Notes under the pieces: generated by a model
What the model was told of the DNA's origin: nothing
The model's input: the letters and a program-made list of their open reading frames with translations, nothing else
The model's database searches: none
In this document: one piece after another, positions 5,143-64,000 of the stretch
Position numbering within the stretch: position 1 is the stretch's first letter
Layout of the letters: every line of letters begins with the position of its first letter
Made by a program: the position numbers and the translations under genes
Assembly (NCBI GenBank): GCA_964016885.1
Contig: OZ024745.1
Location: 12,586,001-12,650,000 of the forward strand
Direction of reading: 5' to 3'
DNA length: 64,000 bases
Source of the DNA: Eledone cirrhosa
Taxonomy: Eukaryota

Positions 5143-5221
<79 letters not shown>

Positions 5222-5231
<10 letters not shown>

Positions 5232-6300
5232 AAGAATCAAAGAACTGTTCAAAACATTATTGTGCTTACAGCTGTTTCCTCCAAACCGAGGTTTGGATTC
5301 TTCGGAGCAATTTATTAATGCATGGACAGTTATATGACCTCCTTTTCAGCCGAGAGACATACCAATACATATTCAAACATTGATACATATTCAAACATTG
5401 TGGGTCAACATTCATTACAGAATTTAGAGTGGCAGTACACACTTCGAGATTACATTTATATTAATAGGTACAATCAAAAATCAAAAATATAGGTTAAGAT
5501 ACAACATGAAGATAAGCGGTTATATAGTGCAAATGTTATATGTGTGGCACGCATGTGCGTCTTGTTTATATAGTGTGGCAGAGAGATATGTGTGGTAGAG
5601 GCACTTAGGTAGGTAAATCTCCATTACTTATAACACTTTTAATGCTTGCACTATCTTTAATGCTTATAATATTTCTCCACACACAGACTATATCAATCAT
5701 ATAAAGGATTTTCCACCAGATCTACCAACCTAACACTCTTATTTACCTACCTAAGTGCCTCTACCACACATATCTCTCTGCCACACTATATAAACAAGAC
5801 ACACATGCGTGCCACACATATAACATTTGCACTATATAACCGCTTATCTTCATGTTGTATCTTAACCTATATTTTTGATTTTTGATTGTACCTATTAATA
5901 TAAATGTAATCTCGAAGTGTGTACTGCCACTCTAAATTCTGTAATGAATGTTGACCCACAATGTTTGAATATGTATCAATGTTTGAATATGTATTGGTAT
6001 GTCTCTCGGCTGAAAAGGAGGTCATATAACTGTCCATGCATTAATAAATTGCTCCGAAGAATCCAAACCTCGGTTTGGAGGAAACAGCTGTAAGCACAAT
6101 AATGTTTTGAACAGTTCTTTGATTCTTATATTTCATATAACTGCTCTGTAAATCATCTGATGTTTTTACATTGAGCTACTTAACTTACTGGTAATAAGGT
6201 AGTAATACAATACTGCCTACCACTATTTAGGGTGTGTGTAAAATACTTACAACTGCTTAAGGTTTTGTATTTACATAACCATAAATAGTATAACTAATAC
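5222..6300. mobile_element. Penelope-like fold-back element (about 400-bp inverted repeat, HHR in each arm) between (TA)n tracts
   Basis: About 5222-5615 is the reverse complement of about 5742-6138. A diverged copy of the 6130-6290 tail lies at about 4570-4755. Confidence 0.8.
6050..6096 (+). ncRNA. Type I hammerhead-like motif, C4 core variant (inverted copy at 5263-5309, minus strand)
   Basis: TGCT-CCGAAGA-A-TCCAAAC-CTCG-GTTTGGA-G-GAAA-CAGCTG-TA-AGCA. Palindromic loopless stem III, GUA site. Confidence 0.72.
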
Positions 6301-8137: not shown

Positions 8138-8221
8138 TGTTTCCTGATGAGTTCGAAGCTCGAGAATTTATCCTTGATAGGATATTTCCGAAAGCGAACG
8201 AAACCCTGAAGGGTAGAAACG
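8138..8221 (+). ncRNA. Canonical type I hammerhead ribozyme in a roughly 440-bp element (about 8071-8512) bounded by (TA)n on both sides
   Basis: TGTTTC-CTGATGA-GTTCG-[hairpin ATCCT-TGAT-AGGAT]-CGAAC-GAAA-CCC-TGAA-GGG-TA-GAAACG. All core nucleotides and three stems present; GUA site ends at 8215. Confidence 0.9.
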
Positions 8222-16924: not shown

Positions 16925-16984
16925 CTTTCTCCCGAATGAAACAGTTCTAGTCCTGTAGAAGCCATTTCTATATATATATATATA

Positions 16985-18455
16985 TAGGAACCAGTAAGAC
17001 CCCGACAGCTGAGCTCAAGCCGTTTCGACGGCTAATTCTGGACTAAATGAACATTTATCCTGGTATTTAAATAGCCGATCTTCTCAAGGGGTAATTCCAT
17101 ATATGGTCAAAGTGATTGTCAAAAATCAGTAGTAATTCTGTGGTTGCAAATTAGTAGGGGAGATGGTGGCTAAACCTGCCAGTAGGAGAAAGAGGGGAGG
17201 GGGTGGAGTAGACCCAATCAAGCGTTGGTAGTGCCAGCTACAGCTGGGCATGAGGTCAAAGAAGATACAGGGGAGGGGGAGGGGGAAGAAGTCGGAACGG
17301 TAGGTAGAACAATGGGGGGTAAAAATAGGAAAGAAAAAATACTGAGAGTGAAGAAAAGCAAATAAGTGTAGCCTTAGTAGCCCCACTCCCCCCTCCCCTA
17401 GTCTTTGATAGATTTGGCGGACTCCGCCCTTTATAGCAGTTGGCTTAGACCCCGGATATTTGCCCCCCTTTTCCGACCGCTCCCACTATTCTCTGTGCCC
17501 TCTATATTTCTTAGTGGCACTTATGCCTTATTTTTTCGTTTCAGTATTTCTTGCTTCGCTTTTCTTCTGGGCGGGGTGGATTCTGAACTTATTTCTCCGT
17601 ATTCTACCTTTATTTCGTACGAACTTTCATGTAGCTTGTTTTAGATCTTTTAGAGTTAGCATTAGTATATATTTTTCCCGGGACTCAGAATTATTATGTC
17701 GTACAAGTTCACTTTGCTGCACTGGGTCGTTGCTGGCCCGGGATGGAAACCTTTATTGTTTATTTCGTGGTAGTCTCTTTAGTATTTTGGCCCCTTTTGT
17801 TGACCAGTCACCGTATCATTTACGTACTTATACCTCTTAAAAGGGTCCTTGCCTAATTCGTCCCACCTAGTTCTTTTACTTATTTCCTTATTTATTTATT
17901 TATTTATTTATTTACTTCTTTCTTTCTTTCTTTATTTTATTCTCGCCTAACAATAGCCTGACACCTAGGTCGTAGAATTTAATTTTTTCTTTACACTTAT
18001 TTGCTTTTCTTCACTCTCAGTATTTTTTCTTTCCTATTTTTACCCCCCATTGTTCTACCTACCGTTCCGACTTTTCCCCCTCCCCCTCCCCTGTATCTTC
18101 TTTGACCTCATGCCCAGCTGTAGCTGGCACTACCAACGCTTGATTGGGTCTACTCCACCCCCTCCCCTCTTTCTCCTACTGGCAGGTTTAGCCACCATCT
18201 CCCCTACTAATTTGCAACCACAGAATTACTACTGATTTTTGACAATCACTTTGACCATATATGGAATTACCCCTTGAGAAGATCGGCTATTTAAATACCA
18301 GGATAAATGTTCATTTAGTCCAGAATTAGCCGTCGAAACGGCTTGAGCTCAGCTGTCGGGGTCTTACTGGTTCCTATTACCCACTCTACTACCTCAAGTA
18401 TTGAGTACTTTGGTGCGTTATGGTCCACCTGGTTCCTTACCACATTTCCTTCGTT
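16985..18455. mobile_element. Non-coding Penelope-like / retrozyme-like element with about 385-bp inverted arms, inserted in (TA)n
   Basis: 16985-17370 is the reverse complement of 17992-18376. The 3' end CACATTTCCTTCGTT joins (TA)n. Short fold-back or truncated copies of the same end lie at about 15955-16118, 16133-16192, 16638-16848 and 18727-18932. Confidence 0.82.
18269..18362 (+). ncRNA. Type I hammerhead ribozyme, U3-A8 core variant, family 1 (inverted copy 16999-17092)
   Basis: ACCCC-TTGAGAA-GA(T)CGGCTA-loop-TAGCCGTC-GAAA-CGGCT-TGAGCTC-AGCTG-TC-GGGGT. GUC site ends at 18357. Confidence 0.82.
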
Positions 18456-30484: not shown

Positions 30485-30540
<56 letters not shown>

Positions 30541-30582
30541 TATAAATATATGTTATTTTAATATATATATATATATATATAT

Positions 30583-31836
30583 ATTATGAAGAGAGAAGAA
30601 ACATTTAGATATAATTAGTAATAAAATGTATCATACCTAAACTGCTCCTAGATTCCTCGACTACGTAGTTTCGTGGCATAAACAAAAACAATACATCATA
30701 AAGATATAGAGTCCTTGCGAGGTCTGCCGACTTATCAAGAGGATACCTCATTTTACTAGTCTCAAGAACGCGTCTACACGACGTGAGAAAGAATCCCAAA
30801 AGGTGGAGGGGGAGATAGTCACGCGATATAACGGTCGAGAAACAGAGCTAAGCCTCTTATAACCCCGAAGAAAATACCACGGAGGCGGAGGGGGTATTTA
30901 TATCGAAGCCGTAGAAGAGGTGGTGAAGGGGGCGAGAAGTATGAGTAATGGAAGCTTTCCAGCAGTCCCCACACTTCAAAGATTGCTCGACCAGAGGGAG
31001 TTATTAACAATATATTTAGAAACACACAGATACATGCGGACACACACATATACATGAATGCATCCGCACCCAACCGTGAGTTAAGGGTGCCAACTTCACC
31101 GATGTTGCTCAATGAATGACTGGGACAGACCAATCCGGTTGAACTAGACTGAACCAGTATCAGAGTTAAAAATACATTATGAAGAGAGAAGAAACATTTA
31201 GATATAATTAGTATGTGTGTGTCCGCATGTATCTGTGTGTTTCTAAATATATTGTTAATAACTCCCTCTGGTCGAGCAATCTTTGAAGTGTGGGGACTGC
31301 TGGAAAGCTTCCATTACTCATACTTCTCGTCTCCTTCACCACCTCTTCTACGGCTTCGATATAAATACCCCCTCCGCCTCCGTGGTATTTTCTTCGGGGT
31401 TATAAGAGGCTTAGCTCTGTTTCTCGACCGTTATATCGCGGGACTATCTCCCCCTCCACCTTTTGGGATTCTTTCTCACGTCGTGTAGACGCGTTCTTGA
31501 GACTAGTAAAATGAGGTATCCTCTTGATAAGTCGGCAGACCTCGCAAGGACTCTATATCTTTATGATGTATTGTTTTTGTTTATGCCACGAAACTACGTA
31601 GTCGAGGAATCTAGGAGCAGTTTAGGTATGATACATTTTATTACTAATTATATCTAAATGTTTCTTCTCTCTTCATAATGTATTTTTAACTCTGATACTG
31701 GTTCAGTCTAGTTCAACCGGATTGGTCTGTCCCAGTCATTCATTGAGCAACATCGGTGAAGTTGGCACCCTTAACTCACGGTTGGGTGCGGATGCATTCA
31801 TGTATATGTGTGTGTCCGCATGTATCTGTGTGTTTC

Positions 31837-31845
<9 letters not shown>
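30583..31845. mobile_element. Retrozyme-like element: two inverted, differently permuted, terminally redundant copies of a 593-nt monomer in (TA)n
   Basis: Left arm: ATTATGAAGAGAGAAGAAACATTTAGATATAATTAGTA at 30583 and again at 31176. Right arm: TATGTGTGTGTCCGCATGTATCTGTGTGTTTCTAAATATAT at 31212 and again at 31805. Both periods are 593 nt and the arms are reverse complements. Confidence 0.88.
31519..31608 (+). ncRNA. Type I hammerhead ribozyme, U3-A8 core variant, family 2 (inverted copy 30654-30743)
   Basis: TCCTC-TTGATAA-GT(C)GGCA-loop-TGCCAC-GAAA-CTACGTAG-TC-GAGGA. GUC site ends at 31603. Confidence 0.85.
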
Positions 31846-31906
<61 letters not shown>

Positions 31907-31908
31907 TA

Positions 31909-31984
31909 ACAGATTAAAGTTTAAGCAAAGAATCGCTGCTTTCACCCTTAACGGGATCTTCTGAAACTAAAGTAGTAAATCTGT
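31909..31984 (-). ncRNA. Hammerhead-like motif, A4 core variant (second copy 63693-63780)
   Basis: ACAGATT..AGTTT-CAGAAGA-T-CCC-GTTAA-GGG-T-GAAA-GCA-loop-TGC-TT-AAACT..AATCTGT. Confidence 0.62.
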
Positions 31985-32087
31985 GAACGCAGAAGTAAAT
32001 ATTTCGAAAAACGTTACACACTATATATATATATACACACGCTATATATACATACAGACACACACACGCACACACGCACACACACAC

Positions 32088-45409: not shown

Positions 45410-48400
45410 TGCCTCCATACACTTAGCCCAATAATCCTTTATCAAGTTACGTCACTTGTGCCTCCATACACTTAGCCCAGTGATCCTTCATCAAGTTACG
45501 CCCCTTGTGCCTCCATACACTTAGCCCAATAATCCTTTATCAAGTTACGTCACTTGTGCCTCCATACACTTAGCCCAATAATCCTTTATCAAGTTACGCC
45601 ACTTGTGCCTCCATACACTTAGCCCAGTGATCCTTCATCAAGTTACGCCCCTTGTGCCTCCATACATTTAGCCGAGTGATCCTTCATCTAGTTACGCCCC
45701 TTGTACCTCCATACACTTAGCCCAATAATCCTTCTTCAAGTTACGCCCCTTGTGCCTCCATACACGTAGCCCAGTGATCCTTCAGGAAGTTACGCCCCTT
45801 GTGCCGCCATACACTTAGCCCAGTGATCCTTCTTCAAGTTACGCCCATTGTGCCTCCATACACTTAGCCCAGTGATCCTTCTTCAAATTACGCCCCTTTT
45901 GCCTCCATACACTTATCCCAGTGATCCTTCATCAAGTTACGCCCCTTGTGCATCCATACACTTAGCCCAGTGATCCTTCTTCAAGTTACGCCCCTTGTGC
46001 CTCCATACACTTAGCCCAGTGACCCTTTATCAAGTTACGCCCCTTGTGCCTCCATACACTTAGCCCAGTGATCCTTCTTCAAGTTACACCCCTTGTGCCT
46101 CCATACACTTATCCCAGTGATCCTTCATCAAGTTACGCCCCTTGTGCTTCCATACACTTAGCCCAGTGATCCTTCTTCAAGTTACGCCCCTTTTCCCTCC
46201 ATACACTTAGCCCAATAATTCTTCTTCAAGTTACGCACTTTGTGCCTCCATACACTTAGCCGAGTGATCCTTCTTCAAGTTACGCCCCTTGTGCCTCCAT
46301 ACACTTAGCCCAGTGATCCTTCTTTAAGTTACGCCCCTTCTGCCTCCATACACTTAGCCCAGTGATCCTTCTTCAAGTTACGCCCCTTGTGCATCCATAC
46401 ACTTAGCCCAGTGATCCTTCTTTAAGTTACGCCCCTTCTGCCTCCATACACTTAGCCCAGTGATCCTTCTTCAAGTTACGCCCCTTATGCCTCCATACAC
46501 TTAGCCCAGTGATCATTCATCAAGTTACGCCCCTTGTGCCTCCATACACTTAGCCCAATAATCCTTCTTCAAGTTACGAACCTTGTGCCTCAATACACTT
46601 AGCCCAGTGATCCTTCATCAAGTTACGCCCAGTGTGCCTCCATGCACTTAGCCCAGTGAACCTTCTTCAAGTTACGCCCCTTCTGCCTCCATACACTTAG
46701 CCCAGTGATCCTTCATGAAGTTACGCCCAGTGTGCCTCCATGCACTTAGCCCAGTGATCCTTCTTCAAGTTACGCCCCTTCTGCCTCCATACACTTAGCC
46801 CAGTGATCCTTCTTCAAGCTACGCCTCTTGTGCCTCCATACACTTAGCCCAATAATCCTTCTTCAAGTTACGAACCTTGTGCCTCAATACACTTAGCCGA
46901 GTGATCCTTCATCAAGTTACGCCCCTTGTGCCTCCATACACTTATCCCAGTGATCCTTCTTCAAGTTACGCGCCTTGTGCATCCATACACTTAGCCCAGT
47001 GATCATTCATCAAGTTACGTCCCTTGTGCCGCCATACACTTAGCCCAGTGATCCTTCTTCAAGTTACACCCCTTGTGCCTCCATACACTTAGCCCAGTGA
47101 TCCTTCATCAAGTTACGCCTAGTGTGCCTCCATGCACTTAGCCCAGTGATCCTTCTTCAAGTTACGCCCCTTCTGCCGCCATACACTTAGCCCAGTGATC
47201 CTTCATCAAGTTACGCCCCTTGTCCCTCCATACACTTAGCCCAGTGATCCTTCTTCAAGTTACGCCCCTTGTGCCTCCATACACTTAGCCGAGTGATCCT
47301 TCATCAAGTTACGCCCCTTGTGCCTCCATACACTTATTCCAGTGATCCTTCTTCAAGTTACGCCCCTTGTGCCTCCATACACTTAGCCCAGTGATCCTTC
47401 TTCAAGTTACGCCCCTTGTGCCTCCATACACTTAGCCCAATAATCCTTCTTCAAGTTACGCCCCTTGTGCCTCCATACACTTAGCCCAATAATCCTTCTT
47501 CAAGTTACGCCCCTTGTGCCTCCATACACTTAGCCCAGTGATCCTTTATCAAGTTACGCCCCTTGTGCCTCCATACACTTAGCACAATAATCCTTCTTCA
47601 AGTTACGCCCCTTGTGCCTCCATACACATAGCCCAGTGATCCTTCTTCAAGTTAGGCTCGTTGTGCCTCCATACACTTAGCCCAATAATCTTTTATCAAG
47701 TTACGCCCCTTGTGCCTCCATACACTTAGCCCAGTGATCCTGCTTCAAGTTACGCCCCTTGTGCCTCCATAGACTTAGCCCAGTGATCCTTCTTCAAGTT
47801 ACGCCCCTTGTGCCTCCATCCATTTAGCCCAATAATCTTTTATCAAGTTACGCCCCTTGTGCCTCCATACACTTAGCCCAGTGATCCTTCTTCAAGTTAC
47901 GCGCCTTGTGCCTCCATACACTTAGCACAATAATCCTTCTTCAAGTTAGGCTCGTTGTGCCTTCATACACTTAGCCCAATAATCCTTTTTCAAGTTACGC
48001 CCCTTGTGCCTCCATACATTTAGCCCAGTGATCCTGTTTCAAGTTACGCCCCTTGTGCCTCCATACACTTAGCCCAGTGATCCTTCATCAAGTTACGCCC
48101 CTTGTGCCTCCATACACTTAGCCCAGTGATCCTTCATCAAGTTACGCCCCTTGTGCCTCCATACACTTATCCCAGTGATCCTTCATCAAGTTACGCCCCT
48201 TGTGCCTCCATACACTGAGGCACAAAAGTCGTAACTTGAAGAAGGATCACTGGGCTAGGTGTATGGAGGCACAAGGGGCGTAACTTGAAGAAGGATCACT
48301 GGGCTAAGTGTATGGAGGCACAAGGGGCGTAACATGATGAAGGATCACTGGGCTAAGTGTATGGAGGCACAAGGGGCGTAACATGAAGAAGGATCACTGG

Positions 48401-51400
48401 GCCAAGTGTATGGAGGCACATGGTGCGTAACTTGATGAAGGATCACTGGGCTAAGTGTATGGAGGCACAAGGGGCGTAACTTGATGAAGGATCACTGGGC
48501 TAAGTGTATGGGGGCACAAGGGGCGTAACTTGAAGAAGGATCACTGGGATAAGTGTATGGAGGCACAAGGGGCGTAACTTGATGAAGGATCACTCGGCTA
48601 AGTGTATGGAAGCACAAGGGGCGTAACTTGAAGAAGGATCACTGGGCTAAGTGTATGGAGGCACAAGGTGCGTAACTTGAAGAAGAATTATTGGGCTAAG
48701 TGTATGGAGGCAAAAGGGGCGTAACTTGAAGAAGGATCACTGGGCTAAGTGTATGGAGGCACAAGGTTCGTAACTTGAAGAAGAATTATTGGGCTAAGTG
48801 TATGGAGGCACAAAGGGCGTAACTTGAAGAAGGATTATTGGGCTAAGTGTATGGAAGCACAAGGGGCGTAACTTGATGAAGGATCACTGGGATAAGTGTA
48901 TGGAAGCACAAGGGGCGTAACTTGAAGAAGGATCACTGGGCTAAATGTATGGAGGCACAAGGGGCGTAACTTGATAAAGGGTTATTGGGCTAAGTGTATG
49001 GAGGCACACTGGGCGTAACTTGATGAAGGATCACTGGGCTAAGTGTATGGAGGCACAAGGGGCGTAACTTGAAGAAGGATCACTGGGCTAATTGTATGGA
49101 GGCACAAGGGGCGTAACTTGATAAAGGGTTATTGTACTAAGTGTATGGAGGCACAAGGGGCGTAACTTGATGAAGGATCACTGGGCTAAGTGTATGGAGG
49201 CACAAGGGGCGTAACTTGAAGAAGGATCACTGGGCTAAGTGTATGGACCCACAAGGGGCTTAACTTGAAGGAGGATCACTCGGCTAAGTGTATGAGGCAC
49301 AAGGGGCGTAACTTGAAGAAGGATCACTGGGCTAAGTGTATGGAGGCACAAGGGGCGTAACTTGATTAAGGGTAATTGGGCTAAGTGTATGGAGGCACAA
49401 AGGGCGTAACTTGATAAAGGGTTATTGGGCTAAGTGTATAGAGGCACAAGGAGCTTAACTTGAAAAGGATCACTGGGCTAAGTGTATGGAGGCACAAGGG
49501 GCGTAACTTGAAGAAGGATCACTGGGCTATGTGCATGGAGGCACAAGGGGCGTAACTTGAAAAGGATCACTGGGCTAAGTGTATGGAGGCACACTGGGCG
49601 TAACTTGATGAAGGATCACTGGGCTAAGTGTATGGACCCACAAGCGGCGTAACTTGAAGAAGGATCACTGGGCTAAGTGTATGGAGGCACAAGGGCCGTA
49701 ACTTGAAGAAGGATCACTGGGCTAAATGTATGGAGCACAAGGGGCGTAACTTGAAGAAGGATCACTGGGCTAAGTGTATGGAGGCACAAGGGGCGTAACT
49801 TGATGAAGGATTATTGGGCTAAGTGTATGGAGGCACAAGGGGCGTAACTTGATGAAGGATTATTGGGCTGAGTGTATGGAGGCACAAGGGGCGTAACTTG
49901 ATAAATGATCACTGGGCTAAGTGTATGGAGTCACGAGGGGCGTAACTTGATAAAGGATCACTGGGCTAAGTGTATGGAGGCACAAGGGGCGTAACTTGAT
50001 GAAGGATTATTGGGCTAAGTGTATGGAGCCAAACGGGGCGTAACTTGAAGAAGGATCACTGGGCTAAGTGTATGGAGGCACAAGGGGCGTAACTTGATGA
50101 AGGATTATTGGGCTAAGTGTATGGAGGCACAAGGGGCGTAACTTGAAGAAGGATCACTGGGCTAAGTGTATGGAGGCACAAGGGGCGTAACTTGAAGAAG
50201 GATCACTGGGCTAAGTGTATGGAGGCACAAGGGGCGTAACTTGATAAAGGATTATTGTGCTGAGTGTATGGAGGCACAAGGGGCGTAACTTGATGAAGGA
50301 TTATTGGGCTAAGTGTATGGAGGCACAAGGGGCGTAACTTGAAGAAGGATCACTGGGCTAAGTGTATGGAGTCACGAGGGGCGTAACTTGATAAAGGATC
50401 ACTGGGCTAAGTGTATGGAGGCACAAGGGGCGTAACTTGATGAAGGATTATTGGGCTAAGTGTATGGTGCCAAACGGGGCGTAACTTGAAGAAGGATCAC
50501 TGGGCTAAGTGTATGGAGGCACAAGGGGCGTAACTTGATGAAGGATTATTGGGCTAAGTGTATGGAGGCACAAGGGGCGTAACTTGAAGAAGGATCACTG
50601 GGCTAAGTGTATGGAGGCACAAGGGGCGTAACTTGAAGAAGGATTATTGGGCTAGGTGTATGGAGGCAAAAGGGGCGTAACTTGATGAAGGATCACTGGG
50701 CTAAGTGTATGGAGGCACAAGGGGCGTAACTTGATGAAGGATTATTGGGCTAAGTGTATGGAGGCACAAGGGGCGTAACTTGAAGAAGGATCACTGGGCT
50801 AAGTGTATGGAGGCACAAGGGGCGTAACTTGAAGAAGGATTATTGGGCTAAGTGTATGGAGGCACAAGGGGCGTAACCTGATGAAGTATCACTGGGCTAA
50901 GTGTATGGAGGCACAAGGTGCGTAACTTGAAGAAGGATTATTGGGCTAAGCGTATGGAGGCACAAGGGGCGTAACTTGAAGAATGATTATTGGGCTAAGT
51001 GTATGGAGGCACAAGGGGCGTAACTTGAAGAAGGATCACTGGGCTAAGTGTATGGAGGCACAAGGGGCGTAACTTGATGAAGGATCACTGGGCTAAGTGT
51101 ATGGAGGCACAAGGGGCGTAACTTGAAGAAGGATCACTGGGCTAAGTGTATGGAGGCACAAGGGGCGTAACTTGAAGAAGGATCACTGGGCTAAGTGTAT
51201 GGAGGCACAAGGGGCGTAACTTGAAGAAGGATCACTGGGCTAAGTGTATGGAGGCACAAGGGTCGTAACTTGAAGAAGGATCACTGGGCTAAGTGTATGG
51301 AGGCACAAGGGGCGTAACTTGATGAAGGATCACTGGGCTAAGTGTATGGAGGCACAAGGGGCGTAACTTGAAGAAGGATCACTAGGCTAAGTGTATGGAG

Positions 51401-51743
51401 GCACAAGGGGCGTAACTTGAAGAAGGATCACTGGGCTAAGTGTATGGAGGCACAAGAGTCGTAACTTGAAGAAGGATCACTGGGCTAAGTGTATGGAGGC
51501 ACAAGGGGCGTAACTTGAAGGAATACTGGGCTAAGTGTATGGAGGCACAAGGGGCGTAACTTGAAGAAGGATCACTGGGCTAAGTGTATGGAGGCACAAG
51601 GGGCGTAACTTGATGAAGGATCACTGGGCTAAGTGTATGGAGGCACAAGGGGCGTAACTTGAAGAAGGATCACTGGGCTAAGTGTATGGAGGCACAAGAG
51701 GCGTAACTTGAAGAATGATTATTGGGCTAAGTGTATGGAGGCA
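45410..51743. repeat. 49-bp intronic satellite with a strand switch at 48216/48217 (giant inverted repeat)
   Basis: TGCCTCCATACACTTAGCCCAGTGATCCTTCTTCAAGTTACGCCCCTTG, about 57 units, followed by about 72 units of its reverse complement. Confidence 0.96.
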
Positions 51744-54320: not shown

Positions 54321-55188
54321 TTTCAAATTTGACCTTTGGCGCCTAAAAATATCTTGGTAACACAACTAAACACCATATATAGTCATTTGTATGTATGGAC
54401 CTGTAACTCCTGATGAAGTGATAGGGGCACCCTAATGACATACAGCATTTCTTGGCCATTTAAAACCTGGTGAAGCTCATCTCTTCTCTCATAAGGCAAG
54501 CAATATGTGACAGAGGAATCAATGATAAAATGGAGTGTAGACTTATATTTGACATCAATATTTTGCTGATTTTCACCAACTTCAACATCAAAAAGATACC
54601 AAAACACCCGAAGTGATTGCATTACAATGAAACACTGTTTTAATACATTTTTACAGAATATCTTTAGTACTTGCTGTCTTTACATTTTCATTTCTCTCGG
54701 CATGTGATTGGCTGAAAGTAAACAAATATTCAAGAAACTGGCACTACAACGCTATTAGCTGTCAGTCCAGTGGAAAACAGGCGAAGGTGACGTCACTCGT
54801 CAACATCGTTTATTTCCGTATTACTACCACGCGTAAGTGGAGTTTTCACGCGGTTTTTTGAGAGAGAGAGGGAAGAGGAGAGAGAGAGGGAAGACTTAAA
54901 AGGGCCAAATTAGAAAACAAATAGAAAAAACAAATAGAAAACAAGTCATGGTTATAAAGCATATCGATGTAAGTGGAGTTACTTAAATGAAAATATAGGT
55001 GGCCCTTAAAAGGGCCAAATTAGAAAACAAATTTAAGTTAATTAGAAAACAAGTCATGGTTATCAATGTAGAAAACAGGTCATTCATAAATTTAAGTTTT
55101 ATAATCAAATTTTTTTTACCAACAAATATGACAGCTAATAGCGTTGTAGTGCCCGCAATTCTGTATCTTTACGTATATTGCGCATAGA

Positions 55189-61180: not shown

Positions 61181-64000
61181 TTTTGAAAAAAATTATTTAC
61201 AAGAAACAAAATAAGAATAAGATTTAATAATGCAATTTTGATTTGATATATTACAAAAAAATGATGTTTTCCAATTTTTCATGCATTATATTTTACAGCA
61301 TAGTTACGTCCCTTTACGATCTGAGTTCAAATCCCGAGGTTGACTTTATTTTATCGACCCCGTAAGGATGAAAGGCAAAGTACCAGTAATGCACTGGGTA
61401 ATTGCTGGCCTTGTGCCTAAAGTAGAAACAATTATATTTTACATTGAGTAATATTGAGTTTTTCTCCATAAATCACTGATTTAAAATCAATCATTTTCTT
61501 ACAAAAAAAATGAGTGAAACTCAGCAAGGCGCTGGTAATTCGGCTAGTATATATATATATGTGAGTGTGTGTATATATATGTGTGTATGTGTATGTAGGA
61601 GAGGTGTAGGTAGAAACTCCATCCTCCGCCACATATGCAAACTATGGATACACAAGAGATGTAGTGGGATCTCAGGAAGTTTAGTTAAGAATGTAGGCTT
61701 TACATGTAGCAGTTGGACAAGTGACATCAAAGTCTGGGAGGACTTGGTAAAAACAATACCGAATTAGCAGCGGAGGGGGTGTTCTGAAAGGATGGGATGG
61801 AAGAAGTTGAGGGAGCTACTGCCGCAGCTGGATACAAAAGGCTTTTCCCTCAGAATAAAAGGTAGACTGTATGATGTGTGCACATGAACGGCAATGTTGC
61901 ATGGTAGTGAGAGCTGGGTGCTGTGTGTAGAAGACTTGCGTAGATTAGAAAGGAATGAAGCTTGTATGCTCCGATGGATGTGTAATAGTAATATACGCGA
62001 ACAGCAAACCATAAACAAACTGTAAGAGAAACTAGGCATAAGAGGAATCAAATGTGCAGTAGAGGAGATTATGTTGGTATGGACATGTGATTCGTATGAA
62101 GGATGACAGCTACATAAAGTCCCAGAAAGACTTGAGATGAAGTGATAAAAGCCGACCTTGCCCAATTGCATCTCTGAAAGGCAATGACACAGGACCAAGA
62201 TCTCTGGCGTTATGAGGTAATACAGAAACCCCAACTTCCCACAGGCCAAGGCTGAAACATACATACAGTATGCACCACTCCATCCCACATGCCAATATAT
62301 CTTTCATGAGAACAGGCCGAAACACTGTAAAGTGGTCGTGATGGTGACACGGTAAAAAACACCCAGTCCACACTGTAAAGTAGTCGTGGAGGAATCACAA
62401 CAAAAAAAACCCAGTACTCACTGTAAATGAACTTGGCATTAGGAAGGGCATCCAGCTGTAGAAACCAAGCCAAAATCAGTTCTTTATGAGCAAGACATGG
62501 TCACCTGACCGCACATGGCTCAGTGGTTAGAGCATTGGGCTTGCAATTGAAAGGTTGTGAGTTTAATTCTCGGACTGAGTGATGTGTTGTTTCCTTGAGC
62601 AAGACACTTTATTTCACATTGCTCCAGTTTACTCAGCTGTAGAAATGAGATGATAGGACTGGGGTCCCTATCATTCCACGGCAAAAAAAAAACAGCCAGC
62701 ACTCACTGTAAATTAAGTTGGTGTTAGGAAGGGCATCCAGCTGTAGAAATCAAGACAAGGTCAGCCGACCGGACACTGCCCACAACAGGACAACCCATGC
62801 TAGCGTAGAAGAACTGACATAAATGATGATGATGATGATGAAATATAATAGAGTTTTATAGCTTGCTTGAAGCATTGATGAATAGGAAACACAAATTAAA
62901 ATTTTGAAAACCAAGTTGAGGGCCTTTGAACCCCAGGCTGCTCCTGATTCTAGATGTGGAAGACGGGACCTTTGGTACCACACAGTGACGTCCTGTTCGA
63001 GAATTGGTCCAGCCCTCAATGCGAAAGTTTGGTCTTAGTCCCGGCAGGATTTTCCATATGTATATCATTGCATATCTCTCCCGTCTTCATTCCGAAGGGT
63101 AGAGTTTCAGTTCTTTTAGCCTCTCCCAGTAGCTCATCTCCTTCATTGTGCAATCCTCTTGGTGTAGCTTCGTTGGATTTTCTCAAGTTCCGTGGTTAGT
63201 TTGATACTATGGCGTGACCACAGCTGGGAGCATTCATCATCATTTCATTTTATGTCCACTTTTTCCCTGCTTGCAAGGGTGGGACGGGAACTGATTCTGG
63301 CTTGATTTCTACAGCTGGATGCTGTTCCTAACACCAACCTCATTTACAGTGAGTGCTGGGTGCTTTTTTCCCCGTGGCAACTCCACATCCACTTTACAGT
63401 GTGGGCTGGGTGCTTTTTTGTCATGGCACCTCCACGACTGCCAGTCCTATCATCTCATTTCTACAGCTGAGTAAACTGGAGCAATGTGAAATAAAGTGTC
63501 TTGCTCAAGGAAACAACACATCACCCGGTGTGAGAATTGAACTCACAACCTTTCGATTGCAAAGCCAATGCTCTCAATATGTACACACACAGTAATAATA
63601 ATACATATGAAGACTAAAATCCAAAGAGGGCTCGATAGGGATAAATATATATCAAATATATAAGAACCGTAGAGCAAATATTTATTAAAATAACAGATTA
63701 AAGTTTAAGCAAAGAATCGGCTGCTTTCACCCTTAATGGGATCTTCTGAAACTAAAAAAGAAAAAAAAAAATCAATCTGTGAATGCAGAAGTAAATATTT
63801 CGAAAAACGTTGCAACCGAAAGAAGACAGGAAGGCGATACTTTGGTTCGTGGAGACGTAGTTTTAGGTATTTCTTCTTGCTTGGTACGGGTATGTTCTTT
63901 GTAGAAATATTCAGATGTTTCTGCATTATGAATATAAGTCAATAGAGTACTCAATCAAGGGAGCCAAATAGTAATAATAATAAATTTGAAGACATCCAAA

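Follow-up and report, generated by a model that had tools for sequence, protein, structure and literature searches.

The 64,000-nt stretch of Eledone cirrhosa DNA analysed here (hereafter, the window) carries a motif that, by its sequence, is a true type I hammerhead with a U3–A8 core (31519–31608, plus strand). The best overall explanation, which we consider likely, is that it represents the hammerhead of a short non-autonomous Penelope-like retroelement (PLE), in effect a long non-LTR retrozyme. That the element itself is of the non-autonomous PLE type appears very likely, and its master copies would probably undergo real cleavage, as dimers and perhaps assisted by a protein.

Three helices surround the core of the motif, with the open ends in stem I, as is typical of type I hammerheads. 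Stem I is formed by 31519–31523 and 31604–31608 (pair probabilities of 0.90–0.94, with two-sided changes in four of its five pairs) and is followed by core positions 3–9 (31524–31530, UUGAUAA, with U3 at 31524 and A8 at 31529), by stem II (31531–31589) and by the segment 31590–31603, in which G12-A13-A14 leads from GAAA (31590–31593) into the palindromic stem III (ACUACGUAGU, 31593–31602) and the GUC triplet (31601–31603); the predicted cut lies between 31603 and 31604. Stem I, the core, GAAA, the palindrome and GUC had all been described in an earlier note on this DNA, and each of them was confirmed in its place letter for letter. Stem II, which that note considered intact, is present but irregular, spanning 59 nt overall and consisting, according to folding and covariation, of two base pairs, a bulged nucleotide (C31533), four further base pairs and then, past an internal loop, a long distal hairpin. 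Core residues 4–6, 9 and 12–14, A15.1–U16.1 and the NUH cleavage site are all present, and positions 3 and 8 form a Watson–Crick combination, U3–A8. The motif had thus been located correctly, but the minus strand holds a second copy, identical to the first (30654–30743, core start at 30738) and evident from letter indexing and the pattern scan, which had been missed.

The core UUGAUAA does not match the literal CUGAnGA consensus, to which this variant is an accepted exception (PMC3088659), and the expectation that a standard search would overlook this hammerhead holds for Rfam. With its gathering thresholds applied, the window contains no Rfam hammerhead, the single match overall being a histone 3′ UTR stem-loop at 54977–55021 (minus strand), which lies at the gathering score. 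With a descriptor that requires the core, a 10-nt palindrome and five base pairs in stem I, there are two matches in the window and none in 200 order-2 Markov windows, and the patterns used to scan the genome yield thousands of matches, compared to 0–1 for the reversed control.

Both copies reside within an insertion at 30,579–31,845. Its right arm (31212–31845, plus strand) comprises one 593-bp unit (31212–31804) and an additional 41 bp, terminating at a distal fixed 3′ end, as established by self-BLAST and end mapping. The left arm (30579–31213, minus strand) is inverted, lies head to head with the right one and terminates at a proximal fixed 3′ end, which maps to 31683 in the right arm; it represents the same unit in another phase. 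Self-BLAST aligns the arms over 472 bp at 99.15% identity and over 204 bp at 100%, and each of the four differences in the 472-bp stretch is located outside the hammerhead motif. On both sides, the insertion is bordered by its target, a (TA)n microsatellite (30489–30584 and 31840–31901). In public contigs, four sets of which were aligned to the unit, loose (TA) ends occur at two places, 31252 and 31683, matching both fixed 3′ ends, and in two contigs the unit's end runs on into its start, forming a tandem junction; the aligned contigs show no difference within 31459–31567 or 31569–31610. Contigs from two other organisms cover most of 31212–31806 with few differences, tandem junction included, and represent either relatives or carry-over. 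The unit has a G+C content of 42.7%, and no reading frame of 120 aa is found within one unit in either arm, the lone listed 164-aa frame spanning the arm junction.

In the genome, the family of this repeat is young and abundant. The 3′ 20-mer has 7,620 exact matches in 3.0 Gb (control, 0). A neighbour on the same strand, at 580–612 bp, accompanies 61 of the first 100 places listed, and these places form 49 clusters, of which 16 contain both strands, head to head in all 16 cases. The unit repeats itself head to tail at 585–607 bp, and non-LTR retrozymes are units of this kind, non-coding, in tandem and carrying a type I hammerhead apiece (PMC7229834); the window locus itself carries one motif per strand. 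In loci L001–L047, 45 of the 49 distinct 3′ ends mapped fall on two fixed sites followed by (TA)n, at unit positions 465–473 (26 ends) and 38–52 (19 ends). Measured from the predicted cut, these sites are situated approximately 80 and 242 nt downstream, with 162 nt between them. The signature described for PLE insertion comprises tandem copies, inversion of a 5′ arm, a tail that may or may not be present and (TA)n as the target (PMC8557442); the family displays 5′ truncation, the inverted arm, the optional tail and the microsatellite target. Across 40 young segments, 41 of the 593 unit positions are polymorphic, compared to none of the 38 structural positions that were not selected for.

A pattern allowing for a longer stem II retrieved 791 further matches (control, 1), which are older subfamilies; the nine motifs compared are 51–87% identical to the window copy, and among the places listed for this pattern an old subfamily is likewise spaced at 593 bp. 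We built an alignment of 45 rows from the window copy, all 30 of the 30 loci of the longer-stem-II search, 5 of 30 loci of a shorter-stem-II search (64 matches versus 15 in the control; the five were picked by eye, and the loci left aside are either copies with deletions or likely due to chance), another 5 of 30 from the 20-mer search and 4 loci with a C3–G8 core. In these rows, 88.4% of 985 cells are paired and 86 cells show two-sided changes, compared to 29 in shuffles (none of 500 reaching 86) and 10–19 in slid controls, with the qualification that the patterns selecting the rows fixed positions 3, 8, 10.1–11.1 and 15.1–15.2, and that kinship of the rows inflates the counts. One of the five measures, further pair types, is not above the shuffles (382 of 500). 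Among the pairs that the patterns left free, inner pairs of stem III alternate between A–U (24 rows) and G–C (17), and between C–G (30) and U–A (12), while stem I pairs alternate between C–G (21) and U–A (18), and between U–A (24) and C–G (9). Pair 10.2–11.2 in stem II is U–A in 32 and C–G in 11 of the 45 rows. Moreover, stem III occurs as three different palindromic sequences among the subfamilies. Because the innermost pairs of such a palindrome are impossible within one strand, this switching points to selection for intermolecular pairing. It is this covariation of stems I, II and III among the older subfamilies that provides, at the level of sequence, the real support for the hammerhead.

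Within the young family, the U3–A8 core is the norm. Counted with exact flanks, it has 5,898 genomic matches, compared to 11 with another letter at position 3 (5 C, 4 G and 2 A, with A8 in all of them) and 13 with another letter at position 8 (8 G, 4 T and 1 C); the same counts contain no C3–G8 combination. The genome-wide consensus is therefore U3–A8, in agreement with the earlier note's reading, and neither C3/G8 nor an unpaired combination. Position 7 of a hammerhead is normally free to vary, and served as a control. With only nine variants, it varies as little as positions 3 and 8, hence the fixation of U3–A8 mostly reflects the youth of the family, and we rejected the within-family invariance of these positions as a sign of selection. 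The earlier note, which took U3–A8 for a tolerated but uncommon natural variant and made no mention of a retroelement, overrated this core, as it has been published in both natural and PLE hammerheads (PMC3088659, PMC4209133). In several natural hammerheads C3–G8 covaries to U3–A8, and activity in vitro has been cited (PMC3088659), while in Schistosoma mansoni about 1,300 U3–A8 motifs occur in the context of Penelope-like elements, the supplement listing the identical core letters UUGAUAA (PMC4209133). The U3–A8 core is, consequently, an already published variant, here represented by a new example in another repeat. At least two further U3–A8 families are present in the E. cirrhosa genome. A third U3–A8 family (L005:2414, L044, L181 and L184) features the core UUGAAAA, a 13-nt stem II and a 6-nt palindrome.

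Within one molecule, the palindrome can form only 3 bp closed by a 4-nt loop (computed at +1.5 kcal/mol), as opposed to a 10-bp duplex between two molecules (−12.9 kcal/mol). The motif thus possesses the palindromic stem III, unstable as a monomer, that is characteristic of the PLE type, for which dimers have been described as well (PMC4209133). In the computed ensemble, the two stem II pairs nearest the core reach only 0.16 and the monomer stem III about 0.1. A hand-built active dimer lacking the pseudoknot discussed below was evaluated at −62.5 kcal/mol, 4.8 kcal/mol higher than the best co-fold (−67.3 kcal/mol), and the 131-nt fold is no better than its shuffles (z −0.66). The active core is thus not the arrangement favoured by the computed fold. 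A competing hairpin at 31513–31523, considered as a potential switch, was dropped owing to its computed probability of 0.02. Cleavage would most likely need a dimer. Since the window locus has one motif per strand, its hammerheads could dimerise only in trans; moreover, a read-through transcript would fold both arms into a long duplex, so the window copy is probably idle.

Just upstream of stem I, 31512–31517 is complementary to 31539–31544 inside the stem II internal loop, and the two strands could form a 6-bp pseudoknot (−6.9 kcal/mol). In the 41 U3–A8 rows, their mean column identity amounts to 0.89 and 0.93, compared to 0.51–0.74 for flanks and loops; specifically, the 5′ strand (0.89) exceeds the six columns preceding it (0.62) and the 3′ strand (0.93) exceeds its neighbours (0.57 and 0.74). 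Pairing is retained in 85% of the pseudoknot cells, with a two-sided change in just three. We are inclined to accept this candidate pseudoknot on the strength of its conservation, with the qualification that it barely covaries. Pseudoknots between stems I and II have been predicted in about 40% of hammerhead representatives, across all three types (PMC3088659). The word pseudoknot is absent from the searchable supplement text of PMC4209133 (one file lay outside the search), and among the sources within reach, which largely excluded subscription papers and figure-only supplements, we found no paper that treats this repeat family or a PLE hammerhead with a pseudoknot.

A pattern combining both pseudoknot strands with a C3–G8 core found four loci (L139–L142; control, 0), which form one family of 84–91% identity, with the stems intact in the better-preserved copies. 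Profile searches match this family to the U3–A8 lineage at E values of 0.01–0.1 in a nine-sequence database, the pseudoknot strands having been part of the search pattern, and common ancestry of the two is weakly supported by these sequences. Elsewhere in the window, hammerhead-like motifs with the standard C3–G8 core are present at 8144 (plus strand), 6419 and 14551 (both minus strand), and the upstream flank of the copy at 8144 resembles, by eye, the family of L139–L142. A more far-reaching scenario, which we put forward tentatively and regard as rather doubtful, is that of a long-lived non-autonomous PLE lineage with a distinct hammerhead subtype, in which the pseudoknot and the long stem II would make the weaker U3–A8 work in an obligate dimer, a probable C3–G8 sister family would keep both pseudoknot strands, and the ends 162 nt apart would mark two start sites of reverse transcription. 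If true, the sister family would offer a natural paired comparison, and the distance between the two start sites would greatly exceed the usual PLE tail.

The genome also holds coding PLEs, namely a family with a 713-aa protein, a family B (a 718-aa frame, with repeats 3,118 bp apart) and a family that we take, from its motifs, to be Neptune-like. A frame encoding a reverse transcriptase and GIY-YIG between pLTRs was found neither in the window arms nor joined to the unit in 60 loci (L001–L030 and L078–L107). Compared with 30 loci of the 713-aa family, the unit showed no similarity beyond a unit-bearing locus and simple repeats; it had no significant DNA similarity to family B (best E 0.06) and shared only simple repeats with 30 loci of the Neptune-like family. 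The autonomous partner was thus not found among the three PLE families checked. Pfam assigned no family to the proteins of the 713-aa family and family B; both carry, by eye, motifs of the Hydra clade (RW-basic, DKT and CxCx5C), and we consider them candidate helpers. A third PLE-like fragment is present in L101.

Family B carries a U3–A8 hammerhead of its own in the terminal repeat. It precedes the start codon by about 190 nt and links U3–A8 cores with coding PLEs in this genome. This hammerhead, unrelated to the 593-bp unit, has a 19-nt stem III and a bulge after two stem II pairs, and a 5-bp pairing of loop II with a 3′ bulge of stem I looks possible; the tail measures about 80 nt by eye. 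The full element with the open 718-aa frame is located at L138:4300–7530, and a 28-mer of the family has 10,799 exact genomic matches, many copies being tiny hairpin stubs. In the window, family B occupies 16984–17370 (minus strand) and 17371–18455 (plus strand), with cores at 17087 and 18274. Hammerheads have been called universal in the Hydra clade (PMC8557442); our scan of 30 loci of the 713-aa family revealed no family-wide canonical hammerhead. Short 3′ ends resembling the 713-aa family by eye lie in the window at 31902–32000 (minus strand) and 63678–63814, the second copy being 86% identical. The window further contains, at 5220–6139, a head-to-head inverted pair (399 bp at 99.7% identity) beside (TA)n, in which the scans detected no hammerhead, and, at 45410–51743, a 49-bp unit in two adjoining, oppositely oriented arrays of 57 and 72 copies.

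In the mechanism that we propose, a transcript of tandem units would bring two hammerheads together, and their palindromes would pair as a 10-bp stem III. U3–A8 would replace the C3–G8 tertiary pair, and both stems may be aligned by the 6-bp pseudoknot, in which the 5′ flank of stem I would pair with the stem II internal loop. The cut after C31603 would free a unit-length RNA, possibly circularised, whereupon a reverse transcriptase–endonuclease borrowed from an autonomous PLE would nick (TA)n and begin copying either about 80 or about 242 nt downstream of the cut. Two such start sites would explain why there are two fixed ends and why the arms are inverted. In an anole PLE, the tail has been placed between two start points of reverse transcription (PMC11167929).

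Conservation of the fold could also be explained by a hammerhead-shaped RNA acting, for the borrowed reverse transcriptase, as a signal for dimerisation or protein binding, with cutting negligible or unneeded and U3–A8 tolerated since catalysis hardly matters. In a mutagenesis scan of another hammerhead, U–A at positions 3 and 8 was inactive, with activity confined to the G–C swap (PMC9901934), and an anole PLE inserted in vitro irrespective of mutations in its hammerhead, which depended on protein, no RNA reads ending at the cut site (PMC11167929). Easy activity of the window motif is also spoken against by the weak cleavage of PLE hammerheads in vitro (PMC4209133; PMC6765202). The insertion 3′ ends observed here do not coincide with the predicted cut site, and the computed core is weak. 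Nevertheless, the catalytic residues and the UH triplet are intact across the old subfamilies, and the families use either U3–A8 or C3–G8, never mismatches (both observations being partly fixed by the search patterns), which, along with the in vitro activity reported for U3–A8 ribozymes (cited in PMC3088659), makes this explanation unlikely in our view.

Family B, which occurs in the same window and whose U3–A8 hammerhead belongs to the terminal repeat of a coding PLE mostly seen as stubs, raises the question of whether the unit is only the pLTR of an unfound autonomous PLE and its copies 5′-truncated stubs, the more so as the inspected copies are a small share of the total. Such an origin is improbable, considering that the unit repeats head to tail, that no same-strand neighbours 0.7–5 kb apart occur among the 100 places listed, that the 593-bp spacing recurs among the places listed for an old subfamily, and that no PLE frame joins the unit in the 60 loci mentioned above. 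As for a chance match or a plain satellite without ribozyme ancestry, the lack of an Rfam hammerhead and the unremarkable folding z-score would fit, but the absence of matches from the 200 simulated windows and the dispersed insertions with fixed ends leave it a negligible probability, and the compensatory changes in three stems refute it.

With copies that number in the thousands and belong to several age classes, this family, along with the other U3–A8 and C3–G8 families of the same genome, provides a natural series for studying the tolerance of U–A at positions 3 and 8. The same series bears on whether PLE hammerheads must cut for transposition, a matter taken up in PMC8557442 and PMC11167929. 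Furthermore, very abundant ribozyme-bearing repeats (7,620 and 10,799 matches of the diagnostic words) can be missed by CUGAnGA descriptors and Rfam thresholds.

The motif shares with PLE hammerheads, including those of S. mansoni Cercyon, the type I topology, a short stem I and a palindromic stem III that requires a dimer, as well as G10.1–C11.1, the U3–A8 covariation, the letters UUGAUAA and closely spaced copies in opposite orientation (PMC4209133). Compared with the hammerheads described there, the window lineage is without the additional nucleotide separating positions 9 and 10.1, G10.1 following A9 directly in all 45 rows, and the window unit differs in its 10-nt palindrome, its 59-nt stem II with a bulge, an internal loop and a distal hairpin, its candidate pseudoknot and its lack of a coding frame. 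Among natural hammerheads, U3–A8 cores and stem I–stem II pseudoknots have both been described, whereas the passages of PMC3088659 on these features mention no dimer-type animal retroelement that combines them. Like Hydra-clade PLEs, the element targets (TA)n and forms tandem and inverted insertions with a tail (PMC8557442); it departs from them in that it is non-coding and without significant DNA similarity to the 713-aa family or family B, and in its tail of 162 nt, compared to the usual 30–40 bp. With animal non-LTR retrozymes it shares non-coding tandem units, a type I hammerhead in each of them and dispersal as monomers, dimers and multimers (PMC7229834; bioRxiv 10.64898/2026.07.22.740005), along with a low G+C content (42.7%, compared to the described value of under 45%). 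Unlike these retrozymes, the unit, known here from DNA alone, is about twice the usual length (593 bp versus about 300 bp, PMC7229834) and combines a U3–A8 core with a clear PLE insertion signature; its length, like that of the tail, counts against the explanation that we favour. Non-LTR retrozymes have themselves been proposed to derive from PLEs (bioRxiv 10.64898/2026.07.22.740005).
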